Assembly: GCA_934465535.1 (NCBI GenBank)
Contig: CAKSKV010000004.1
Location: forward strand, 41,715-105,714
Reading direction: 5' to 3'
From: an uncultured Clostridia bacterium
GTDB taxonomy: Bacteria; Bacillota; Clostridia; Christensenellales; QALW01
Length of the DNA: 64,000 bases
Part shown: positions 8,058 through 64,000 of the stretch, piece after piece
Layout: each line of letters opens with the position of its first letter
How positions within the stretch are numbered: the first letter of the stretch is position 1
Translations under genes and position numbers: made by a program
The notes under the pieces: generated by a model
The model's database searches: none
Told to the model about the DNA's origin: nothing
What the model saw: the letters and a program-made list of their open reading frames with translations, nothing else

Positions 8058-8359
8058 TTTTCCCTCCGAAGCATAAGGAACAATCCCGGCTGCGCCGCAT
8101 CTGCGGCGCTGTGTGTTTTATTAAAGGCGACTTTATTACGGCAGTTACAGCGGGATTTATAACAGCATTATAACAATATAACAACAAATATATATGCGGA
8201 CGGAAAGACAAATATGCAAGCAAATAATGAATATCCGGCGCGGATAAAACGCATCAAATATAAAAATCAGAAATATAAAAATATAGTGTTGCGCCGCAAT
8301 CATACGATGATTATACAAAAAGCATAAAGCATGCACCGCCGCCCGGCATCCGGCATAAA

Positions 8360-9610
8360 ATGAAAAGCACGCAATACAAAAATATGTATAAGACAGAGCC
8401 TGAATATTTCTTCCGGGAAACGCTGAGAATGCCGGAAGATATCGGGCCCGGAAAGGAGAAGCGCTTGGAGAACATAGGATATTCATACCGTACAACGGGG
8501 CCGGTATGCGCGCTGCTGCAGCTGACGCTTGCGGAGTTGGGCTTTGAACCGGGGCCGCCGGACGGCATATTCGGCCGGCGCACCGAAGCCGCCCTGCGCG
8601 CATATCAGAAAGCCGCCTCCCTGACGGCGGACGGCATTGCGGGCCCTGCCACATGGGAAAGCCTCGAGCCGGTACTGCTGAGCCACGGCGTATATACCTC
8701 TATCCCCTATTCCTCGGCTATATTGCAGTTAAATACAGAGGGCTTGCAGCGGCAGTTTCCGTTTGCGCGCACGGATGCAATAGGCGGCTCGGTGCAGGGC
8801 GTGCCTATTTGGCGCATAAGCCTTGGGGAGGGAGAACGGCGCATAATGATAAACGCCGCGCATCACGCAAACGAATGGATAACCTCCCCTTTGCTTATGC
8901 AGTACATTTTTTCGCTGTGCTCCGGCTTTGAGCAGGACGGCGAAGCGGACGGAGTGCCGGTGCGGGAGCTTTTTGCACGGCTGCGGATGGATTTTGTGCC
9001 CATGGTAAACCCTGACGGGGCGGATCTTGTAACAGGAGAGATACAAAAGGGCAGCCCCGCTTATATGTCGGCACTGGAGATGAACAGGCAGGAGCCGTTT
9101 CCGTCGGGGTGGAAGGCGAACATACGCGGAACGGATCTGAACCTGAATTATCCCGCCATGTGGGAAAGGGCACGCGAGCTTAAGTTTGCAGCCGGCTATA
9201 CCTCGCCCGGCCCCCGCGATTATGTTGGGCCGTTTCCGCTGAGTGAGCCGGAAAGCACGGCCATGGCGGCGCTTACGGTGCAAAGCGGATATTCTCTTTG
9301 CGTAAGCCTGCATACGCAGGGAGAGGTGATATATTGGCAGTTTGAGAATATGGCGCCCCTTCCCCGCAGCCTGGAAATAGGCACCGCCATGGCGGAGGCC
9401 TCCGGATACAGGCTGGATACGCCGGAGGAATTTTCCTCCTATGCCGGCTTTAAGGATTGGTTTATTATGACCTTTGGCCGTCCCGGATACACCCCGGAGT
9501 GCGGGCTTGGAAAAAATCCGCTGCCGATCTCGGATTTTGACGGGATATATGAGCATCTTGCACCGCTGCTTACCGCCGCGCTGCAGGAGGCCGCCTTCGG
9601 AGGAATATAA
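8360..9610 (+). CDS. M14 zinc carboxypeptidase with peptidoglycan-binding domain (gamma-D-Glu-DAP peptidase-like)
   Basis: PG_binding_1-like segment GPPDGIFGRRTEAALRAYQKAASLTADGIAGPATW, then M14 blocks HHANEWIT, MVNPDG, SLHTQGEVIYW. The exact start is uncertain. Confidence 0.8.
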   Translation: MKSTQYKNMYKTEPEYFFRETLRMPEDIGPGKEKRLENIGYSYRTTGPVCALLQLTLAELGFEPGPPDGIFGRRTEAALRAYQKAASLTADGIAGPATWESLEPVLLSHGVYTSIPYSSAILQLNTEGLQRQFPFARTDAIGGSVQGVPIWRISLGEGERRIMINAAHHANEWITSPLLMQYIFSLCSGFEQDGEADGVPVRELFARLRMDFVPMVNPDGADLVTGEIQKGSPAYMSALEMNRQEPFPSGWKANIRGTDLNLNYPAMWERARELKFAAGYTSPGPRDYVGPFPLSEPESTAMAALTVQSGYSLCVSLHTQGEVIYWQFENMAPLPRSLEIGTAMAEASGYRLDTPEEFSSYAGFKDWFIMTFGRPGYTPECGLGKNPLPISDFDGIYEHLAPLLTAALQEAAFGGI

Positions 9611-51628: not shown

Positions 51629-52047
51629 AGTTATAACCGCTTTCCCGAAGCATAAGGCTTCGCAGAGTAAGAATAAAACCGTTTCGGGCGCATAAAAAGC
51701 GCTTCGGCGGCATTTTTACGGTATGAATTTTATCATAAATAAGCCGTAAAAGAATGTGCAATCTGTAAACAATGCCGTTTTGCCCGATATTTTGGGCAAA
51801 AGACGAGCAAAAACATGCGCAAAAACGCAAAAAGCAGGGTTTATGTGCAGTTTGCACATTGAATACGCAAAGGAAATGAGTTATTATTATAATTGAATAA
51901 GTATGCCGGAGAACCGATTTACCGGTAGGAGCGCCACCGGGAATGCAGCAGCAAAAATGCGCAAAAACGCAGCGGCCGCCCATGCGCGGTTCCGTTTTGG
52001 GGAGCGGACGGGCACGGCAAAAAGAAAAGAGAAGGAAAGAAAACAAA

Positions 52048-54141
52048 ATGAAGCAAGGAAAAAAACTGCTGAGCATTATGCTGGCGATGCTTATCGCGGC
52101 CTTGGCCTGCGGGCTTACCGGCTGCATTAAGGCGCCGGGAGAGAGCGTAAGCGCAGAGGCAACACAGACTCCCGATACCGCCTTAAGCCCGGAGGCCACA
52201 CTTGACACAACTCCGTATACAACTCCCGGCGATACTCCCGATATAACGCCCGGCCCCACTCCGGCGCAAAGCGAAACCGTGCAGCCGCAGGATACCGAAT
52301 CTCCCGCGCCCACGCCCACGCCCGCTCCGGGAGATACCGGCGCGCCCGCACCGGGACCCACGGTATCCCATGCGCCGGTCAGCAAGTGGGATTATTATGT
52401 AACCTACGGCTCCGCCTCGATACGCACCGTTGCGCTTACCCGCTTTAACGACGGCACGCAGGGCGGCGGCGAAGGCAGCTTTACCTTTACCGGCGACGGG
52501 CTTTTAATAAAGCAGCAAAACGGCGCCTATGCCGATACCTACGGCATATATTCCGGGGCGAATCTGGGGTCGGCTGATTATTCCAAAGTGCGCTATGTGG
52601 GAATAACGGTTAAAAACCTTGAAAGCCACGATGTGCTTTTCGGGCTTCAGGGAACAGACAAAAATAGAAAGAATATATTTCTCTATCCCGAGGGCGATCC
52701 GATAGCTCTTGCTTATGACAACGGCGATATAAAGGCGGCCGGCGGTCAGGGCGGCGTGAACGGGCGCTATTGCATAGTGCTGCCCGCGGGCTTCTCCGGC
52801 AGCGTGTTTATCCCGCTTAACCGCATAGCGGACAGTCACGAAAAGGACAAGGCAAAGCAGTGGGCCAAAACCCCCATAACAAGCCCCGGCTTCCATTTAA
52901 GCGACGGCGGCAGCAAGGGAGTGCTGGTTTCGGCGCTGTTTATCTGCTCCTCTGCCCTGAAGGCTCCCGATGAGGCGGCGGGCGGCATTACAAACAAGGA
53001 CTACACCTATACCGAGGCTCAGCGCATTGCGGCCTTCTGGAAGAATTCCACAATGTACAACGAGTCCATCACCATGATGAAGCGTTCAAACGGCGAAATA
53101 TATGCAAAGACCCTGTTTGTGCCCACCAAGATAAACGCGGTGGTGGATGTGTACCTCCAGAAGGAATACAAGGAGGGCGTGGACTGGGAATGGGTAAAGG
53201 GCACAAACAAAATAAAGTGGCTCTCCGGCTCCTCCATTCCCTATTTTACGGATAACGACCTTTCCGGCAAGGATTCAAAGGGCAATTATATTCCGGAATT
53301 CCCCACATGGTCGGACGGCGGACGCAGCCGCTTCGGAAACGCGCTGTACTGCGTAAGCTCCTTCCTTTATGAAAAGCAGATATGCATAAGCTACACCTAC
53401 GATACGGCGCAGGTGGCAAAGCAGGGCATAAAATACACGCAGTATCAGGGCGATAAGCTGAAAAACACGGTGAACAAGCTTAAAAACGGCGAAAACCTGA
53501 AGGTGCTGTTCTACGGGGATTCCATATTCTCCGGCTGCGACGCCTCCGGCATGTATAACAGGGAGCCGTATATGCCCTATATGCACAAGCTTATACAGCA
53601 GGAGCTTTCCCGCAATACCAAGGGCAAGGTGCAGGTGGACAACTTGGCCGTGGGCGGCTGGACCGTGGAAAACGGACGGGACGCGCTTTCCGGCGAGGTG
53701 GGCGGATATAATTACTCTAATAAATACAAGGGCTACGACCTGCTTATACTCTCCTTCGGCATGAACAACGCGAGCACCCCCAAGGAGGAATATAATCCCG
53801 TAACCAAGGAATATGAAGGATATGTTCCGGCGACCAAGGCCATTGTGGATAAAATAAAGGCGGCAAACCCGAACCTTGAGGTGATACTGGTTTCCTGCAT
53901 GAACCCAAACCCCCGCGTGGGCTGGGATGTAAACCAGAAGAATCAGGGCGGATGGCTTAAGGAAATAGCGGCGCAAAGCCCGTATTCCTCCTATACTGCG
54001 GTGGTGGATTTCTATGCGGTGCACAAGAGCATACTTGCCTATAAGGATTTCAGCGCCACTACGGGCAACAACATAAACCATCCCAATGACTGGCTTATAC
54101 GCGTGTATGCGCAGAATATTCTTGCGGCGATGATAAAATAA
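52048..54141 (+). CDS. SGNH/GDSL hydrolase-family lipoprotein
   Basis: Start at ATG 52048. Lipobox LTGC, long Pro/Thr linker, then SGNH blocks FYGDSIFSG (block I), GMNN (block III), NINHPND (block V). Confidence 0.8.
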   Translation: MKQGKKLLSIMLAMLIAALACGLTGCIKAPGESVSAEATQTPDTALSPEATLDTTPYTTPGDTPDITPGPTPAQSETVQPQDTESPAPTPTPAPGDTGAPAPGPTVSHAPVSKWDYYVTYGSASIRTVALTRFNDGTQGGGEGSFTFTGDGLLIKQQNGAYADTYGIYSGANLGSADYSKVRYVGITVKNLESHDVLFGLQGTDKNRKNIFLYPEGDPIALAYDNGDIKAAGGQGGVNGRYCIVLPAGFSGSVFIPLNRIADSHEKDKAKQWAKTPITSPGFHLSDGGSKGVLVSALFICSSALKAPDEAAGGITNKDYTYTEAQRIAAFWKNSTMYNESITMMKRSNGEIYAKTLFVPTKINAVVDVYLQKEYKEGVDWEWVKGTNKIKWLSGSSIPYFTDNDLSGKDSKGNYIPEFPTWSDGGRSRFGNALYCVSSFLYEKQICISYTYDTAQVAKQGIKYTQYQGDKLKNTVNKLKNGENLKVLFYGDSIFSGCDASGMYNREPYMPYMHKLIQQELSRNTKGKVQVDNLAVGGWTVENGRDALSGEVGGYNYSNKYKGYDLLILSFGMNNASTPKEEYNPVTKEYEGYVPATKAIVDKIKAANPNLEVILVSCMNPNPRVGWDVNQKNQGGWLKEIAAQSPYSSYTAVVDFYAVHKSILAYKDFSATTGNNINHPNDWLIRVYAQNILAAMIK

Positions 54142-54381: not shown

Positions 54382-56121
54382 ATGAAAAACATCAGAAGCG
54401 GCGCATTTTTCGCGCCCTGCGGAAAAAAGAGCGGAAAAAGCGGAATAAAGCTGGATTATGTGGAGCCCACCGACCCCAAGGCGGGCAATACCGTGGCGCA
54501 TGCCGCCGTAAGCAAGTGGGATCAGACCTTTTCCTACGGCGATGCCTCGATAAAATGCACCGCACTTACCCGTTTTAACGACGGACAAATCGCTGCGGGC
54601 GAAAAAAGCGAGCAGGGGCTGCGCCTTACGGGCAGCGGCTTAAAGAAGGGCATAATAACCGGCGCAAACCTTGATTATGATTGCAGCGAGGCGGAGTATT
54701 ATGCAATATCGCTGTGCAATAACGGCAAAAAAGCGCTTATAGGCCTTGATGCGGATATTGAGGCGGACAAAGCAGTGCTGGCGCCGGAAAACGGAGAGCC
54801 GGAGGCGGTGCAGGCCGAAAAATGCGAAGGGATAAATGCCGCAGTGCTGCCCGAGGGCTTTAAGGGCTGCGTGCTTTTCCCGGTTAAAAACGCAAGGGAG
54901 AGCTTCGGCAGCGTTGATATAGCCTGGAGCGGCGATGTTACGCTGTGCGCACTGCTTATGTGCGATACGCCCCTTGAAATGCCGGGGCAGGGCAGCAAAA
55001 TAACAAACCCGCTGTACAGCTACACCGACAAACAGCGTATGCAGCCGTTTTGGGAGTGCTCCACCATGTATAATGAATCCATGGGCATGATGAAGCGGGA
55101 GGACGGCAGCATATGGGGCAAGCTGCTGTTTGTACCCACCCGCATAAACGCAGTGGTGGATGTATATCAGAAAAAGGAATATAAAGAGGGCAAGGACTGG
55201 CAGTGGATAGAGGGCACGAACCGAATAGTGCGCCCCGAAGGCTCGGATATTCCGTACTTTACGGAAGAAGGTCTTTCCGGCAAGGAGGAAAACGGCGAGT
55301 TCATTCCGGAATTCCCGACATGGACGGACGGCAGAAGCCGCTTCGGCGCCTGCCTGTACTGCGTGACGGATTTCATATATGAAAAGCAGATATGCGTATC
55401 CTATGAGTATGATTTAAGTCAGGTAAAGAGCGAGGGCATTGCAAGCACGCCGTGCCAGAGCGAGCGCCTTGTGCGCACAAATGCACGCCTTAAAGAGGGC
55501 CGCGACCTGAAGGTGCTGTTCTACGGGGATTCCATATTCTCCGGCTGTGACGCCTCCAGCATGTATAACAGAGAGCCTTTTATGCCCTATATGCATAAGC
55601 TTATAGAAAGCGCACTGGCCTCAAGAAGCACAGGGCGGGTGCGGGTGGACAACTTGGCCGTGGGCGGCTGGACCGTGGAAAACGGACGGGACGCACTTTT
55701 CGGCGATGTGGGCGGACACGATTATTCCAAGAGCTACAAGGGCTACGACCTTATGATACTTTCCTACGGCATGAACAATGCCTATACCCCCGAGGAGGAA
55801 TTCAAGGCGGCCACCCAAAAGATAATGGAAACGGTAAAAGAGGCAAACCCTGATATTGAAATAGTGCTGGTTTCCTGCATGAACCCCAACCCCCGCGTGG
55901 GCTGGGATGTAAACCAGAAATATCAGGGGCAGTGGCTTAAGGACATTGCCCAAATGCCTGCATGGCAGGAGCGCACGGCGCTTGTGGATTTCTATCAGGT
56001 GCATAAGAGCATACTGGTCTATAAGGATTTCAGCTCCACTACGGGCAACAACATAAACCACCCCAACGATTGGCTCATACGCGTGTATGCGCAGAATATA
56101 GTGCGGGCCATAACAGAATAG
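54382..56121 (+). CDS. SGNH/GDSL hydrolase-family protein (paralog lacking a signal peptide)
   Basis: Collinear with the upstream gene from VSKWD..ALTRFNDG to ..NINHPNDWLIRVYAQNI, with the same SGNH blocks. No lipobox or linker. Confidence 0.8.
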   Translation: MKNIRSGAFFAPCGKKSGKSGIKLDYVEPTDPKAGNTVAHAAVSKWDQTFSYGDASIKCTALTRFNDGQIAAGEKSEQGLRLTGSGLKKGIITGANLDYDCSEAEYYAISLCNNGKKALIGLDADIEADKAVLAPENGEPEAVQAEKCEGINAAVLPEGFKGCVLFPVKNARESFGSVDIAWSGDVTLCALLMCDTPLEMPGQGSKITNPLYSYTDKQRMQPFWECSTMYNESMGMMKREDGSIWGKLLFVPTRINAVVDVYQKKEYKEGKDWQWIEGTNRIVRPEGSDIPYFTEEGLSGKEENGEFIPEFPTWTDGRSRFGACLYCVTDFIYEKQICVSYEYDLSQVKSEGIASTPCQSERLVRTNARLKEGRDLKVLFYGDSIFSGCDASSMYNREPFMPYMHKLIESALASRSTGRVRVDNLAVGGWTVENGRDALFGDVGGHDYSKSYKGYDLMILSYGMNNAYTPEEEFKAATQKIMETVKEANPDIEIVLVSCMNPNPRVGWDVNQKYQGQWLKDIAQMPAWQERTALVDFYQVHKSILVYKDFSSTTGNNINHPNDWLIRVYAQNIVRAITE

Positions 56122-56327: not shown

Positions 56328-56403
56328 GGGGGTGTAGCTCAACTGGTAGAGCGCTTGAATGGCATTCAAGAGGTAAGGGGTTCGACCCCCCTCATCTCCA
56401 CCA
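56328..56403 (+). tRNA. tRNA-Ala (anticodon GGC)
   Basis: Folded by hand: acceptor GGGGGTG/CATCTCC with the G3:U70 Ala identity pair, D-arm GCTC-AACTGGTA-GAGC, anticodon arm CTTGA-ATGGCAT-TCAAG, variable loop AGGTA, T-arm AGGGG-TTCGACC-CCCCT, discriminator A and an encoded CCA. Confidence 0.9.
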
Positions 56404-56608: not shown

Positions 56609-56869
56609 ATGTGGGAAAATATTGATATTGATAGGCATTACACGGGAGTGTTTCAAATTTTAGATGAACCAATATCGGGAGAATTGATTTATAATAAGCA
56701 AAATGGTACTATACTTTTAAGTCTAATAAAGGAAGTAAACTCGAAATCATTTTTCGGAAAAAGTTATGGCACACAACCGATTATTACCGGCAAGCTGAAC
56801 ACAGGTGCGGTAGTGACTCTTTTTAACAATCGGTGCAGTAACAACCATATTCATTGGTTACAAGACTAG
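56609..56869 (+). CDS. hypothetical 86-aa protein, probably a 5' gene fragment
   Basis: Good RBS (AAGGAGA). The sequence ends abruptly after ..VTLFNNRCSNNHIHWLQD and is followed by non-coding AT-rich DNA. Confidence 0.35.
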   Translation: MWENIDIDRHYTGVFQILDEPISGELIYNKQNGTILLSLIKEVNSKSFFGKSYGTQPIITGKLNTGAVVTLFNNRCSNNHIHWLQD

Positions 56870-57452: not shown

Positions 57453-57950
57453 GTGGATGCAATTGAATGTATAAAGACAAGGCGCAGCGTTCGGCGCTAT
57501 ACCGATCAGCCGATTGACAAACAGGCAATACATCAAATTCTTGAAGCCGGCATCAGCGCTCCGTCCGGTAAAAACGGTCAGCCATGGAAATTCAAAGTTG
57601 TAACCGATAAAGAATTGATAAACAACATATCTGATTTATCGATTCATGGTTCATGGATGAAAACGGCACCGCTGATTATTGTGATATTTCTTGATAACGC
57701 CTGTTCATATGACCGACTGAAAGATATTCAATCCTGTGGAGCGGTTATGCAAAATATGATGTTAACCGCACACTCTCTTGATATCGGAAGCTGTTGGATT
57801 GGCGAAATACTGCCTAAGTCAAAAGAAGTAAAGCAAGTTTTGAAACTTAATGATGAAAGCCTTGAACTCATGGGAATTGTACTATTCGGACATAAATCGA
57901 GCCGAATGATTGATCCGGGGCGAAAGAGAATTGAATCGTTTCTGTTGTAA
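57453..57950 (+). CDS. nitroreductase-family flavoprotein
   Basis: RRSVRRYTDQPI and SAPSGKNGQPWKF motifs. GTG start 8 nt after GAGGAG. Confidence 0.85.
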   Translation: MDAIECIKTRRSVRRYTDQPIDKQAIHQILEAGISAPSGKNGQPWKFKVVTDKELINNISDLSIHGSWMKTAPLIIVIFLDNACSYDRLKDIQSCGAVMQNMMLTAHSLDIGSCWIGEILPKSKEVKQVLKLNDESLELMGIVLFGHKSSRMIDPGRKRIESFLL

Positions 57951-59307: not shown

Positions 59308-59592
59308 ATGACAACAGAAGAGATAAAAACAGAAGTAATTGATTTGATTTCCGAATTGTTCGGGGACAAGGGTTTTGACACCGACATCATTGAATATGCC
59401 GATTTAGTCGATGACATGGGCATGGATTCAATAACCTTCATTTCGATTGTCGTCGAGCTTGAGGTAAAGTTTGATATTACTGTGTCGGATGATATGTTGC
59501 TGATAGATAACTTCAAGAAAGTCGATGATATTGTAGCTGTTGTCGAAAATGAACTGGCGAAAGGAGCTGAAAACGGCGATGGCTGTAAATGA
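59308..59592 (+). CDS. acyl/peptidyl carrier protein
   Basis: 94 aa. DMGMDSITFISIVVELE contains the phosphopantetheine Ser in a D-S-(I/L) context. Confidence 0.8.
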   Translation: MTTEEIKTEVIDLISELFGDKGFDTDIIEYADLVDDMGMDSITFISIVVELEVKFDITVSDDMLLIDNFKKVDDIVAVVENELAKGAENGDGCK

Positions 59593-60820
59593 AGAAAAGC
59601 TTGTTAAGATGCTAAGATATGTATCTGAGTATAACGATTTTTACAAGAACAGAATAAAAGAATACGGAATAACAAATCCGTTGGATATTACGCAATGGCC
59701 TGTTCTGACAAGGAAAGAGTTGCAAGAAAACCGGTATAATATGTTCTCGGATGGGTATAAGTCAAAGTATTTTAATCAGCAGCTCCGCAGACAGTCATCA
59801 TCCGGTTCATCCGGAATGCCGGTTAACGTCTATTGGGATTACAAAGACTGGTATGCATCAAATATGTCATTATGGCGCAAAAGGTGGCAGTGGTATGGTA
59901 TTAAGCCGGGCGACAAATATGTTATGTTTACATTGAATGCATTCAATGTAAAAGTGAACGGCGAGACTGTCTACTATATCAAAAAACCCGAGAATGTTCT
60001 GTCGGTCAATGTTTCTTTGATTCAAAATGAAGAGCAGTACAAAAATCTTGTTGATATCATGAACGATTTTAATCCTGCGTGGCTATATATTCAGCCTTTT
60101 GTACTTAATAAACTGATTCAAATCTACAAGAAATATGATTTGAAAAAGCCGACTGCTCTTAGATATATTGAATCCGTTGGTGAATTGCTATCATCAGATT
60201 TAAGAAGGCGGGCAATTGAATTCTTTGATGTTGCATTTGCCAATATGTATGGCTCAGAAGAAATGAACGGTATTGCGTATGAGTGTCCAGAATACCATAT
60301 GCAGGTGCTTAATGATAACATATATATTGAGGTTCAGAATAATAATGGCATTAGTCTAAGCGGAGACGGTGAGGCGATTATAACTAATTTGAATAATTTT
60401 GCTATGCCACTTATACGGTATAATCAATGCGATTGTATTGTTGTAGATAATTCTCAACCATATTCATGTGTAAATAACAGAAACATTATTTGTCATATCA
60501 ACGGAAGATCTTCTGATTGTATTGCACTGGGTGATAAAGAAATCAACAGCTATTTTTTAGTTGAAATACTATCAGAAACAAATAATCATTATAATGGTAT
60601 AATTGATTTTTATCGTTATGTGTATAAAAAATCTCAAAGAAAAATTGAATGTATGATAAATACAAAGAAAACTGAGTGGTATAGCAATATTAAAAAAACT
60701 TTGGAGGACATCTTTATAAAACAAGTCTTGCCTGATACCGATATTAGTTTTGAGGTCAAATTGGACAAAGAGGCTTTGCTTTATGGAGAGAAACCTCAAA
60801 TACTAACAATAGTTGATTAA
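59579..60820 (+). CDS. PaaK/F390-synthetase-like adenylate-forming enzyme
   Basis: SSGSSGMPV P-loop-like motif and YGSEE.., with the overall length and pattern of the phenylacetate-CoA ligase/CapK family. The start is uncertain (TTG 59540, ATG 59549 or ATG 59579) and overlaps the carrier gene end. Confidence 0.75.
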   Translation: MAVNEEKLVKMLRYVSEYNDFYKNRIKEYGITNPLDITQWPVLTRKELQENRYNMFSDGYKSKYFNQQLRRQSSSGSSGMPVNVYWDYKDWYASNMSLWRKRWQWYGIKPGDKYVMFTLNAFNVKVNGETVYYIKKPENVLSVNVSLIQNEEQYKNLVDIMNDFNPAWLYIQPFVLNKLIQIYKKYDLKKPTALRYIESVGELLSSDLRRRAIEFFDVAFANMYGSEEMNGIAYECPEYHMQVLNDNIYIEVQNNNGISLSGDGEAIITNLNNFAMPLIRYNQCDCIVVDNSQPYSCVNNRNIICHINGRSSDCIALGDKEINSYFLVEILSETNNHYNGIIDFYRYVYKKSQRKIECMINTKKTEWYSNIKKTLEDIFIKQVLPDTDISFEVKLDKEALLYGEKPQILTIVD

Positions 60821-60906: not shown

Positions 60907-62256
60907 ATGAGTGTCTTTGAAAATGATACCCCTGTTGTTAAGACATTCGTGTACAAGAATAAATGTTATTTATATGATACATATAATAATCAGCTCTTTT
61001 CTGTACACAGTAGACTTTATTACGAAATTTGCAAAATGCAAACAATAGGTATTTGTAAATATATGCATTTAAATTGTAATGATAATTACTATAAAGATGT
61101 GTTAACATTAATGAATAAGGGGTACTTACGCCATGGATTCATTGACAAAGTCCAGCATCAGTCAACACCTTATATAGAGTATCTAACAGAGCGTTGTATG
61201 AGTCATTTAGTTCTTGAGGTAACAAATTCATGCAATTTTAAATGTAGATATTGTCACCAAGCGAGTAATCAAACTATAAATAAAAAAGTAATGAACACAA
61301 ATGTAGCATATCGCAGTATTGACTTGTTTTATGAACATTCAAAGGATGCGAATGATTTAGTATTGACCTTTTATGGCGGTGAGCCACTTATTAATTTCAA
61401 TTTAATAAAAGAAATGGTTATGTATGCGAAAGATAAGTTCAAGACAAAAAGGGTTTCATTTAATATAACAACAAATGCATCCTTAATTGATGAGGAAATA
61501 ATCGATTTTTTATATAGTAATGGCTTTTCAATTTTAATAAGTTTAGACGGAGATGAAGTGATTCAAAACAGTCATCGAAAGTTTCTAATAGATGGTGGAG
61601 ATACTTTTGATATTGTATGGAATAATATTCTTAAAATTCGCGCCAAATATCCCTCGTTTTTCAACTCGAATGTAAGTTTCAATTCTGTAAGATTGCAAGA
61701 CGAATCAAGAAGAAAAGTAGTAGAGTTTTTTAGAAAAAATGGTATATCTGATTCGTCAATTAGTATTCGTGATGCAGATATGGACGGCATTGATTATATA
61801 TATTCGCCGTTGTTTATAGATGCCAATAATAGAGATGATGACAGTATTAACAAAGATGATTTTTCTAACGTATTAAAGTTATATAACAACAAAAGTAAGA
61901 TACCAAAGGTATGGCATCATAATGGACCTTGTATACCAGCAGTAAATCGTCTGTTTGTCAGCACGGAAGGAAAGTTTTATCCATGCGAAAAAGTAGAACA
62001 AGATGATGCGTGTTCCATTGGAGACTTAGCAACAGGTGTTGATATTGACAAAGTGGTGCGAATCTTAAACATTGGCCAGATTACGAGTAATGATTGTCCG
62101 AATTGTTGGGCTTTAAGATTTTGCTCGATATGTGTGCATCGTTGCGTTGATAACGGGAGTTTATCGTACGATAAAAAAGTTAGATCTTGTAAAAAAACAA
62201 AAGAAGATGCAATAAGATTTTTTAAATATCTTATAGATAATAAACAGGTGAAGTAA
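60907..62256 (+). CDS. radical SAM peptide maturase with SPASM-type C-terminal domain
   Basis: SCNFKCRYC (CxxxCxxC), FYGGEPL, and a C-terminal Cys cluster GPCIPAV..GKFYPCEK..CPNCWALRFCSICVHRC. RBS AAGGAGA. Confidence 0.9.
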   Translation: MSVFENDTPVVKTFVYKNKCYLYDTYNNQLFSVHSRLYYEICKMQTIGICKYMHLNCNDNYYKDVLTLMNKGYLRHGFIDKVQHQSTPYIEYLTERCMSHLVLEVTNSCNFKCRYCHQASNQTINKKVMNTNVAYRSIDLFYEHSKDANDLVLTFYGGEPLINFNLIKEMVMYAKDKFKTKRVSFNITTNASLIDEEIIDFLYSNGFSILISLDGDEVIQNSHRKFLIDGGDTFDIVWNNILKIRAKYPSFFNSNVSFNSVRLQDESRRKVVEFFRKNGISDSSISIRDADMDGIDYIYSPLFIDANNRDDDSINKDDFSNVLKLYNNKSKIPKVWHHNGPCIPAVNRLFVSTEGKFYPCEKVEQDDACSIGDLATGVDIDKVVRILNIGQITSNDCPNCWALRFCSICVHRCVDNGSLSYDKKVRSCKKTKEDAIRFFKYLIDNKQVK

Positions 62257-62299
62257 ATAGTAAATATCTGTAATAAAGAAGGAAGGGATAGCTTTGCAA

Positions 62300-63172
62300 A
62301 TGGAAAATATAGGTTTGCTAACTAATTCGATTACGGCTCGTATGTTAATGTATCAAATTGATTATGTGTTAAACATACCTGTGAAAAATATCTATGTTTT
62401 ATCTGAAAACCATAATAAAAGCGAAATATTTCCTACTAGCGGCGCAAAAGTAACTATATGTGACTCATATGATGAGTTCATACAAAAAAGTGAATTGATA
62501 ATTACTTCAAACAAGCAAGAAACGTTAGCGCATATTGACAACAGAAAACTTCTATTTATTGATAGCCCTTGGAATGGTTATGAAAATCATAGCATGAATG
62601 GTTGTTTAACTAAAAAGCTTAATTATTCGAATGCTCCTGTTGTTTTTATATTATCAATTGGCGATTTTACCGATCAATATCACATTGAAATACTTGTCAA
62701 TAAAATCGTAGCCTCGAAAACAAAAAGAATAGCACAAATTTTTACCCCGGAAACAAAAGCATTACTAGATAGTATCGCTAAATCAAAAAACATAAATCCC
62801 AATTTAGTAAATGCATGCAATAATAATGATGGTGATGTAATTATTATTTCTGCAAATAATATATCGAATGATTTAGAATTGATACAAATTATAAAAGAAA
62901 TATCTCCGGATTACTTTATCTTATGTGTTGATTACTCATTTAACGGATTAAATGAGGTTGAGTTATTCTTTTCAAATATTTGTAAAATAAATATTGTTGT
63001 CCAATCTCCCTATATTACAAATAAATTGTTGGAAGGAAAACAATGGTCTGTTTATTGTAATGTAGAAAAATCCAATGTCTTCCATAATACATTGGAAAAA
63101 GATTTCGAAAACTACTTGGAATTACACATTATGCAGAAAATATTCATGCCTAACAGTATTGGCTTTGTATAA
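62300..63172 (+). CDS. hypothetical protein of the peptide-maturation cluster (possibly TIGR04066-like)
   Basis: 290 aa with no motif I recognise. Its position between the rSAM and precursor genes matches my recollection of the clostridial TIGR04066 family. ATG 62300 follows GAAGGAAGGG. Confidence 0.6.
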   Translation: MENIGLLTNSITARMLMYQIDYVLNIPVKNIYVLSENHNKSEIFPTSGAKVTICDSYDEFIQKSELIITSNKQETLAHIDNRKLLFIDSPWNGYENHSMNGCLTKKLNYSNAPVVFILSIGDFTDQYHIEILVNKIVASKTKRIAQIFTPETKALLDSIAKSKNINPNLVNACNNNDGDVIIISANNISNDLELIQIIKEISPDYFILCVDYSFNGLNEVELFFSNICKINIVVQSPYITNKLLEGKQWSVYCNVEKSNVFHNTLEKDFENYLELHIMQKIFMPNSIGFV

Positions 63173-63198
63173 CATTTGAAAATTGAAAAGCGGAATAG
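63170..63198. repeat. left arm of a perfect 29-bp inverted repeat
   Basis: TAACATTTGAAAATTGAAAAGCGGAATAG. It begins with the stop codon of the upstream gene. Confidence 0.9.
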
Positions 63199-63215
63199 TG
63201 GAAGGAGGTGAAAAA

Positions 63216-63386
63216 ATGTTTTTGAAGTCTGATAACAACAATGATTTTATAACAAGATCGTGTTGTTCTCCTACCTGCCAGTGTGGTACTTGTGGTGGTG
63301 TTTCAACTGCAGAATCAAAGGGGCGTAGCGGAGCTACTAGCAGTGGTGGAACCGTTGTTTCTGCCCAAAGCCCAACGTCTGCATAA
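63216..63386 (+). CDS. 56-aa Cys-rich RiPP precursor candidate
   Basis: MFLKSDNNNDFITRSCCSPTCQCGTCGGVSTAESKGRSGATSSGGTVVSAQSPTSA. GGAAGGAGGTG lies 7 nt upstream. It sits beside the rSAM/SPASM enzyme and an exporter. Confidence 0.65.
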   Translation: MFLKSDNNNDFITRSCCSPTCQCGTCGGVSTAESKGRSGATSSGGTVVSAQSPTSA

Positions 63387-63423: not shown

Positions 63424-63452
63424 CTATTCCGCTTTTCAATTTTCAAATGTTA
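63424..63452. repeat. right arm of the perfect 29-bp inverted repeat
   Basis: CTATTCCGCTTTTCAATTTTCAAATGTTA, the exact reverse complement of 63170-63198. Confidence 0.9.
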
Positions 63453-63478: not shown

Positions 63479-64000
63479 ATGAAGGATAAAATAAATCATT
63501 TCCTTAAAGCCGAATGGTTTTGCCTAAAACAGATTTTTAAAACAGATTTTTTAAACGGCTTGGTTTTTTTAATTATTACTGGGATAAAATATGCAATTCC
63601 GCTTATCAGCGTGTGGTTATGGAAAATAATACTTGATGAATTGACCTTAATCTACCAAACAAAAGCAGCAAGCAATGATATATGGATATATCTCGGAATA
63701 TATCTTGTGATTCAAATGTTTTCGTCTGTCATTGTTCAAGTGAACTCAGTTATTTACGCAAAAGTAAGGCGAAAAGCATCATATGAGCTTGACATGGCAA
63801 TCATGCGGAAGATGGCGCAAATTGATTCCGCTTTCTTTGACGATCCGGAAAACAAGGATGTAACAGAAGCGGCACGGACAAGCGAAGGATATATCGCACT
63901 TAATATGCCGTGGGCGATTGATACGATTATCCGGATCATTACCTTTATTTCGGGTCTTGTTATGTTTCTTTCCTATGACTGGATTGTCGGGTTGATTTAC
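63479..64000 (+). CDS. ABC exporter permease/ATPase, 5' part (truncated by the window end)
   Basis: Open frame from ATG 63479 to the window edge (MKDKINHFLKAEWF..). It has exporter TMD features (hydrophobic helices, ..MRKMAQIDSAFFDDPE..) and no C39 peptidase-like N-terminus. Confidence 0.75.
   Translation, partial: MKDKINHFLKAEWFCLKQIFKTDFLNGLVFLIITGIKYAIPLISVWLWKIILDELTLIYQTKAASNDIWIYLGIYLVIQMFSSVIVQVNSVIYAKVRRKASYELDMAIMRKMAQIDSAFFDDPENKDVTEAARTSEGYIALNMPWAIDTIIRIITFISGLVMFLSYDWIVGLIY

Follow-up and report, generated by a model that had tools for sequence, protein, structure and literature searches.

The closest described relatives of the locus considered here are the CcpM-type systems, whose computational definition dates back years and which are often found in gut Clostridia and in Paenibacillus. 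We know of no product of such a system with a solved structure, and to our knowledge the chemistry of CcpM has never been shown. In the known thioether RiPPs made by radical SAM (rSAM) enzymes, the acceptors lie C-terminal to the donors.

In SacP23 of Paenibacillus polymyxa #23, MRKLVKRSTNVGDTIEAFGCGCSCYCPCSCYCAGSLTRSSNTSRESDGSYRRDNGTGIGN, a precursor of the CLI_3235 family, the N-terminus is 19 aa long, seven Cys fall within 13 residues, and the polar tail of 28–29 aa contains none (PMC10731318). Its product was reported at m/z 3404 with a blocked N-terminus and without a determined structure (PMC10731318). When this mass was mapped to sub-peptides in the present work, many fragments fitted, and it is not diagnostic of tail retention. 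Paenibacillus loci of this kind encode CcpM (598 bits) along with a TIGR04066 protein, a TIGR04069 ACP-related protein, a subtilase and a TIGR04065 precursor. From another RiPP class, nosiheptide biosynthesis with NosI, NosJ and NosK illustrates how a discrete adenylating enzyme can load a carboxylic acid onto a discrete carrier protein (PMC5585349).

A CcpM-like operon on a mobile island

The window, which is the whole stretch of 64,000 nucleotides of uncultured Clostridia DNA that was analysed, contains the following genes of the cluster and its border:

56328–56403, plus strand: tRNA-Ala, the left edge of a low-GC island
57453–57950, plus strand: nitroreductase-family flavoenzyme, conserved in L011, L015, L016, L174 and L180
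57963–59303, plus strand: AMP-binding ligase whose nearest solved relatives are NRPS A domains (PDB: LgrA A domains)
59308–59592, plus strand: acyl/peptidyl carrier protein with an intact GMDSIT phosphopantetheine site
59579–60820, plus strand: PaaK/F390-synthetase-like adenylate-forming ligase, 413 aa by gene calls (the ORF opens at TTG 59540)
60907–62256, plus strand: rSAM/SPASM maturase, CcpM-like and CteB-like, with an RRE-like N-terminal domain
62294–63172, plus strand: 292-aa protein, a divergent homolog of the TIGR04066 “peptide maturation system protein” by hhalign
63479–64000, plus strand: first of two ABC exporter genes, running off the window

Upstream of the tRNA-Ala gene the GC content is about 0.53, and directly after it the value drops to roughly 0.3–0.4 (about 0.33). 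The rest of the cluster is seen on longer public contigs: two ABC exporters, proteins of 321 and 313 aa, and a truncated tyrosine recombinase, the last of these being a 171-aa N-terminal fragment encoded about 2.4 kb downstream in the element. Mobile genes near the cluster include TnpV, a serine recombinase, and NikA-like and ParM-like genes, and the chromosomal flanks differ from copy to copy (L001–L010). The operon rides a mobile low-GC island that occupies several chromosomal contexts.

Some copies of the element have decayed. In one (L010 2332–4472), the ligase and rSAM genes have been joined by a deletion, and in another (L001 4532–4735), the nitroreductase gene is truncated; the precursor gene and the inverted-repeat arms described below are intact in both. 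Upstream of the tRNA, the window also holds adjacent GDSL-lipase-domain paralogs (51943–54141 and 54382–56121) with near-identical C-terminal halves. A short ORF at 56609–56869, whose sole match is to the N-terminal domain of ApeA (PF18862), is probably a remnant of a gene at the edge of the island.

The precursor peptide and its homologs

Between the gene for the 292-aa protein and that for the first ABC exporter lies a small gene, which can be divided as follows:

63200–63210, plus strand: strong RBS GGAAGGAGGTG, ending 5 nt upstream of the ATG
63216–63386, plus strand: precursor peptide gene, recognized from its translation, RBS, public contigs, alleles and same-slot homologs
63216–63260, plus strand: putative leader, residues 1–15, with the clade-wide M-x-F-x-K found 15–20 aa from the first Cys
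63261–63293, plus strand: Cys block CCSPTCQCGTC, residues 16–26, putative thioether donors, with C17, C21 and C23 invariant in the near clade and five Cys codons kept in divergent alleles
63294–63383, plus strand: Cys-free polar tail, residues 27–56, with Glu33 acidic in 11 of 11 near relatives and a conserved C-terminal S-P-T-S-A

The ORF translates to MFLKSDNNNDFITRSCCSPTCQCGTCGGVSTAESKGRSGATSSGGTVVSAQSPTSA, that is, 56 aa followed by a stop codon, with Cys at residues 16, 17, 21, 23 and 26 (CC-x3-C-x-C-x2-C) and none at all among the 30 residues from 27 to 56; in each of these respects the translation agrees with an earlier note on this DNA. An in-frame TTG at 63183 is an unlikely start codon, because all homologs begin with M-x-F-x-K directly after their own RBS. 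At least 32 public assembly blocks carry the identical peptide, and the surrounding operon is the same every time. A scan for promoters and terminators gave no enrichment and no site adjoining the precursor ORF.

No Pfam or NCBIfam model matched the peptide, and neither did the TIGR04065 profile, even at E ≤ 10; that profile matched six of the 17 scanned precursors, presumably those of the M-K-K-L types. Peptide searches returned near-identical alleles only, amounting to three proteins in a word-indexed search, and a HMMER scan of 1.84 billion representatives recovered the peptide's own cluster plus one spurious Cys-rich match. Since sequence searches reach no further than near-identical alleles, the family could be assembled only by means of gene context.

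Syntenic clusters, defined by the order ligase, ACP, PaaK-like ligase, rSAM, 292-aa homolog, gap and ABC transporter, were gathered through a genome scan, a metagenome scan and exact look-ups. They yielded 24 further precursor cistrons in the same slot (25 including the window), and each of the loci L011–L019, L092–L097, L104, L171–L174 and L178–L181 was found to possess a small, RBS-preceded ORF at this position. The earlier note had proposed that the peptide is the precursor for the adjacent rSAM maturase, and this is borne out by comparable ORFs beside the homologous enzymes: clusters lacking one were not encountered, and a small ORF is present in every syntenic cluster examined.

Across 21 window-clade precursors, the segment ahead of the first Cys begins with M-x-F-x-K and spans 15–20 residues (median 17), the Cys block contains two to six Cys, and the tail runs for 15–38 residues (median 30), 62–97% of which are polar or small. 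The proposed arrangement of a short N-terminus, a Cys block and a long Cys-free polar tail is thus a real design, conserved across homologous clusters. An alignment of small ORFs next to homologous rSAM genes, which the same note had recommended, could be made with the 11 nearest relatives. M1, F2, C17, C21, C23 and S49 are invariant among them, position 33 is Glu in ten and Asp in one, and seven of the 11 end in S-T/P-P/T-S-S/A.

The layout was also described in that note as unusual, and here the claim went too far. Eleven precursors adjoining related maturases, mostly of the M-K-K-L CLI_3235 type, have an N-terminus with a median of 19 residues and a tail with a median of 29, and the same layout is seen in CLI_3235/TIGR04065 precursors such as SacP23 (PMC10731318) and in other Cys-rich precursors. 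Given its recurrence in CLI_3235-type precursors, the layout is the family norm and no oddity. Compared by hhalign, the window-clade and CLI-type precursors align with a probability of 14% and an E value of 0.002 over 18 columns.

Two variations on the design were observed. Locus L171 carries two tandem precursor genes (8353–8529 and 8587–8757) whose cores differ. In the more distant precursors (L012, L013, L015, L104, L014, L092 and L094), the block is limited to two or three Cys, and one additional Cys near the C-terminus of the tail hints at the closure of a large loop.

On these comparative grounds, the small gene is a real precursor of an uncharacterized family of rSAM-modified, Cys-rich products of gut Clostridia, and the window ORF is very probably a genuine precursor of the CcpM type.

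The radical SAM/SPASM maturase

At E ≤ 1e-20, the maturase has upwards of 1,200 relatives. TIGR04068 CcpM is the family that fits it best (E 4e-108), ahead of the lachnocin, PapB, RumMC, QhpD and SCIFF maturases. With 362.3 bits it remains below the TIGR04068 cutoff of 500, as compared with 598 for a Paenibacillus control, and it likewise scores under the cutoffs of PapB (182.5 bits; cutoff 340), SCIFF (124 bits; cutoff 425) and, by a wide distance, RumMC (E 4e-49, 168 bits; cutoff 720). The three Cys of the CxxxCxxC motif (C109, C113 and C116) are invariant, as are eight Cys in the C-terminal part (C342, C360, C397, C400, C406, C409, C413 and C428).

The nearest solved structure is CteB, both by sequence and by fold (Foldseek, whole chain). 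In an AF2 model of the enzyme (pLDDT 86.6), residues 11–70 form a β-β-β-α-α-α domain ahead of the barrel (pLDDT >93) with an RRE-like fold; a search for PqqD/RRE at the sequence level gave no match in this N-terminal domain. Fold matches also include anSME, SuiB and EpeE. The NCBIfam matches cover both ranthipeptide and sactipeptide maturases and CteB is nearest, so that the sequence does not discriminate between a C-alpha and a C-beta/gamma acceptor; the hairpin-sactipeptide arrangement raised in the earlier note is one candidate. Because the modelled enzyme is CteB-like and bears an RRE-like N-terminal domain, thioethers running from the Cys block into the proximal tail would be the best assignment of its chemistry, and the conservation of Glu33 fits this assignment.

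Accessory genes

The A-domain-like ligase has a His in place of the α-amino-binding Asp of A domains. The carrier is a true PP-binding ACP with a DS motif, and its 17.4 bits against TIGR04069 fall short of the cutoff of 70. The 292-aa protein occupies the same position as TIGR04066 and aligns with it by hhalign at a probability of 97.8% (E 1e-12, 289 columns); a direct HMM search with TIGR04066 gave no match, and the protein is a remote homolog, not a member by the curated cutoff. It also displays weak SRP54/DUF1611-like similarity. Single-sequence AF2 modelled it at a pLDDT of 36.5, and a homolog search returned only relatives of at least 83% identity.

The two ABC exporters, seen in full at L001, are 601 and 594 aa long and have no C39 peptidase domain, and no protease genes are encoded in the cluster. 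Past the window end and downstream of the ABC genes, L001 13958–14923 and 14907–15848 encode paralogous soluble proteins of 321 and 313 aa (unk321 and unk313), which are 27% identical and match no Pfam family. These might be immunity, transferase or protease components; the more specific assignments to BtrH-like acyl-ACP transferases or peptidases were dropped for want of any Pfam match. Wherever the precursor occurs in the window clade, the ACP, the A-domain-like ligase and the PaaK-like ligase are conserved beside it, and the nitroreductase usually is as well. No description of the window-clade variant was found in the literature.

A possible route to the product

Maturation would begin with the leader (residues 1–15, M-x-F-x-K), which the modelled RRE-like N-terminal domain of the maturase would bind. 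The thiols of the Cys block would then serve as donors for rSAM-catalysed thioether cross-links, with acceptor carbons supplied by the proximal tail, including the conserved Glu33. The conserved end of the tail may be a handle for accessory enzymes or a follower. Further modification could be carried out by the A-domain-like ligase, the holo-carrier, the PaaK-like ligase, the TIGR04066-like protein and the nitroreductase, probably with an acyl group other than an α-amino acid; the roles given to the four accessory enzymes are guesses. Finally, the product would be exported by the two ABC transporters. We lean, if only slightly, towards this route in its entirety, from RRE-bound leader through thioethers in the proximal tail and further modification to export. 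Several points speak against it. A single acidic residue follows five Cys, and the Cys-Asp/Glu pattern of PapB and QhpD would be insufficient for all of them. The peptide fits no Pfam or NCBIfam model, the maturase scores under the TIGR04068 cutoff and gives no PqqD/RRE match at the sequence level, and the cluster is without a protease gene; nor is any CcpM-type product known to have a solved structure.

Two of the competing readings concern the tail. In the one that survives best, which we nonetheless consider rather unlikely, the tail acts chiefly as a follower or handle. The cross-links would be confined to the Cys block and the few residues after it, up to Glu33, and the distal tail would serve recognition, solubility or export and be trimmed from the mature product. 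Such a role is consistent with a distal tail whose sequence varies across the wider clade while its composition is constant (62–97% polar or small), and with the C-terminal S-T/P-P/T-S-S/A that near relatives keep, as would be expected of a recognized end. The SacP23 mass of 3.4 kDa, about 1 kDa below its predicted 42-aa core, also points to extra trimming (PMC10731318). That mass, however, is compatible with many fragments, and neither a protease nor a C39 domain on the transporters is available in the cluster. Moreover, the placement of acceptors C-terminal to donors in known thioether RiPPs implies that some of the tail must be core. The earlier suggestion of a follower or recognition segment is partly compatible with the comparative data, in that near relatives conserve the extreme C-terminus.

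Less probable again is that the tail is the substrate of the ligase and carrier enzymes, either through O-acylation of Ser/Thr from acyl-S-ACP or through adenylation of the C-terminal carboxylate, where the PaaK-like ligase would activate the conserved C-terminus for ligation or cyclization. A bona fide ACP and both ligases are conserved alongside the precursor in the window clade, the tail is rich in Ser/Thr with a conserved C-terminus, and the PaaK family includes the amide-forming ligases DdaG and BagE/FevW. The blocked N-terminus of SacP23 and the NosI/NosJ/NosK precedent (PMC5585349) are also in keeping with such chemistry. On the other hand, canonical CLI_3235 clusters possess the same tail without the ligases and with an ACP-like protein that has no Ser; the tail would thus predate the ligase/carrier machinery and be independent of it. 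In addition, no acyltransferase could be recognized among the 292-aa protein, unk321 and unk313. The idea put forward in the earlier note that the tail is an acylation site accordingly found no comparative support.

It is improbable that thioethers play no part, with the Cys block instead binding metal or forming disulfides, or with the rSAM enzyme performing epimerization or C–C coupling. The rSAM/SPASM enzymes are chemically diverse, and the fold matches to anSME, SuiB and EpeE would allow for this, but the best matches by both sequence and fold are the thioether synthases CteB, PapB, RumMC, QhpD and SCIFF, and Cys are the sole invariant residues of the core.

An inverted repeat around the precursor cistron

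A perfect 29-bp inverted repeat encloses the RBS and the precursor ORF, with 225 bp between its arms:

63170–63198, plus strand: 5′ arm, 29 nt, which opens on the upstream gene's stop codon and stops 1 nt short of the RBS
63424–63452, plus strand: 3′ arm, 29 nt, beginning 38 nt after the precursor stop codon and ending 27 nt before the ABC start codon

The predicted fold of the sense RNA includes the stem (MFE −107.7 kcal/mol, z −7.6). A dispersed repeat or MITE was considered as the origin of the arms and excluded, there being a single pair within the window, and an Rfam scan of the bracket region returned nothing relevant.

Homologous loci form helices at the equivalent position, where the 5′ arm ends 15–32 nt before the ATG, and the sequences of these helices are unrelated. 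The helix score is at least 29, the 99th percentile of 338 non-cognate pairings, in 15 of the 25 homologous cistrons (the window being one of them). Mismatches in the helices are more often G·U on the sense strand than A·C (26 versus 11; binomial p ~0.01, an approximate value since some loci are related), and compensatory A:U to G:C changes were found between L011 and L174 and between L014 and L092. The second precursor of L171 has its own perfect 16-bp bracket, and the first shows weak pairing at that position, within the null range. Canonical loci, in which the precursor lies upstream of the maturase, are mostly without a helix. All 13 compared copies of the window element share one orientation.

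Further bracket arms were noted at L011 (9206–9238/9477–9509), L013 (9338–9376/9588–9626), L017 (3608–3644/3848–3884) and L104 (3388–3418/3647–3678), among other loci, and the inner helix ends often read AAGYGGAA/TTCCRCTT. In Anaerosporobacter mobilis (L025 9757–9903), a 40-bp bracket helix with a score of 61 occurs at a locus that has a canonical TIGR04066-type neighbor, yet whose precursor is downstream of the maturase.

The segment between the arms is also where alleles of the element diverge. Of two allelic variants of the peptide, one 95% and one 82% identical to it, neither has lost any of the five Cys, and the final 13 residues are unchanged in both; the variant elements (L175 3084–3254, L176 and L177) are ~98.8–99% identical overall to the window type. 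Outside the precursor ORF, they differ from window elements at 0–4 sites per 100 nt; within the 171-nt ORF there are 23 substitutions, affecting eight codons synonymously and ten non-synonymously. Every ORF substitution between alleles falls between the repeat arms, and the arms and flanks are identical. This pattern argues for constraint on the coding sequence at the Cys codons, and it suggests that the precursor cassette may have been swapped between conserved flanks by allele replacement.

RNase III processing stalks bracket the 16S and 23S rRNAs in rRNA operons, and a comparable RNA role is favored for the bracket helix, which may direct RNase III-type processing or stabilize the precursor cistron. 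This is preferred over DNA inversion because of the single orientation and the lack of a conserved invertase. An inverton that switches the precursor gene off by flipping would be in keeping with perfect repeats around a 225-bp segment, with allele substitutions confined between the arms, and with the truncated tyrosine-recombinase gene in the same element. It is nevertheless improbable: that recombinase is only a 171-aa N-terminal fragment, no conserved recombinase accompanies the homologous helices (none is present in L171–L174 or L178–L181), the helices are unrelated in sequence, and both the excess of sense-strand G·U and the compensatory changes between related loci count against it.

Least of all could the precursor ORF be a chance open frame that is never translated, since only its small size and low-complexity tail speak for this, and the strong RBS, the slot and layout conserved in 24 further cistrons, and the Cys conserved despite synonymous changes effectively refute it.

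Joining the RNA role of the helix to the proposed route, it is tempting to suggest a distinct hybrid RiPP class, thioether-stapled and with a conserved tail that a dedicated A-domain-like ligase, holo-carrier protein and PaaK-like ligase acylate or ligate, whose precursor cistron is excised or stabilized by a helix resembling an rRNA stalk; we offer this combination tentatively, as a possibility rather than an expectation.

Significance

The window clade provides at least 25 precursor cistrons with clear boundaries between leader, Cys block and tail. The conserved acidic residue and the C-terminus are ready targets for mutation, and the enzyme set predicts a hybrid acylated product. As the element occurs in many human and animal gut metagenome assemblies, its product may influence how members of the microbiome compete. 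The bracket helix is a separate, previously unreported feature, and it gives rise to the hypothesis that the supply of precursor is controlled post-transcriptionally. If true, a precursor-to-enzyme stoichiometry set by a helix would be previously undescribed in RiPP operons.

Comparison with known systems

The hairpin sactipeptides subtilosin A, thurincin H and ruminococcin C resemble the window system in their rSAM/SPASM maturase (the RumMC model matches the window enzyme) and in having Cys donors N-terminal to a Cys-free segment able to fold back. They differ in spacing, with Cys at every third or fourth residue as opposed to every second in the window peptide, and in the segment itself, which is hydrophobic or helical in the sactipeptides and polar and Gly/Ser-rich in the window tail.

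A short leader ahead of a Cys-rich core is shared with SCIFF/thermocellin-CteB, PapB/freyrasin and QhpD/QhpC, and CteB is the nearest solved structure to the predicted model of the window maturase, its RRE-like N-terminal region included. The conserved acidic Glu33 downstream of the Cys recalls the Cys-Asp/Glu cross-linked peptides. Unlike the ranthipeptide-type systems, the window peptide has no CxxxD repeat and offers a single acidic residue for five Cys, and the 30-aa tail and ligase/ACP set of the window are missing from the CteB, PapB and QhpD systems.

An AMP-ligase and a carrier protein within a RiPP cluster, which in the window are known from their genes, are found in nosiheptide biosynthesis as well. 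That system belongs to the thiopeptide class, and a NosK-like hydrolase or transferase is not recognizable in the window cluster.

The bracket helix is like the rRNA stalks in that a helix of 20–38 bp flanks a functional unit in a longer transcript, with its pairing conserved and its sequence not. It is unlike them in enclosing a small protein-coding RiPP cistron, and any processing there is putative. In contrast to gut-bacterial invertons, no orientation variant was seen among the 13 copies compared, nor any conserved invertase.

The closest comparison is with the CLI_3235/CcpM system (TIGR04065–TIGR04069). The precursors follow one three-part plan, in which a leader of ~19 aa leads into a densely packed Cys block and then into a polar tail of ~29 aa without Cys. 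Both systems encode an rSAM/SPASM maturase followed directly by a TIGR04066 protein or, in the window, by a remote homolog of one, together with an ACP-type protein and an ABC exporter. The leaders differ, being M-x-F-x-K in the window and M-K-K-L-x-K...V-E-A-Y in CLI_3235, and the TIGR04066 relative in the window is detectable only by profile-profile comparison. The window-clade ACP keeps the phosphopantetheine Ser in GMDS(I/V), whereas the TIGR04069 protein (L020 9590–9865) has lost it, and the canonical CcpM system appears from these sequences to carry a degenerate carrier. Relative to that system, two adenylate-forming ligases and a nitroreductase are extra in the window cluster, which has no subtilase. 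Its precursor gene follows the maturase gene in the middle of the operon and lies within the long bracket helix. Because the peptide matches no model, the rSAM enzyme scores below the CcpM cutoff, and a true carrier protein, two adenylate-forming ligases and a nitroreductase are added, the window clade is a variant distinct from the canonical CLI_3235/CcpM system, within a known but chemically unsolved kind of RiPP.
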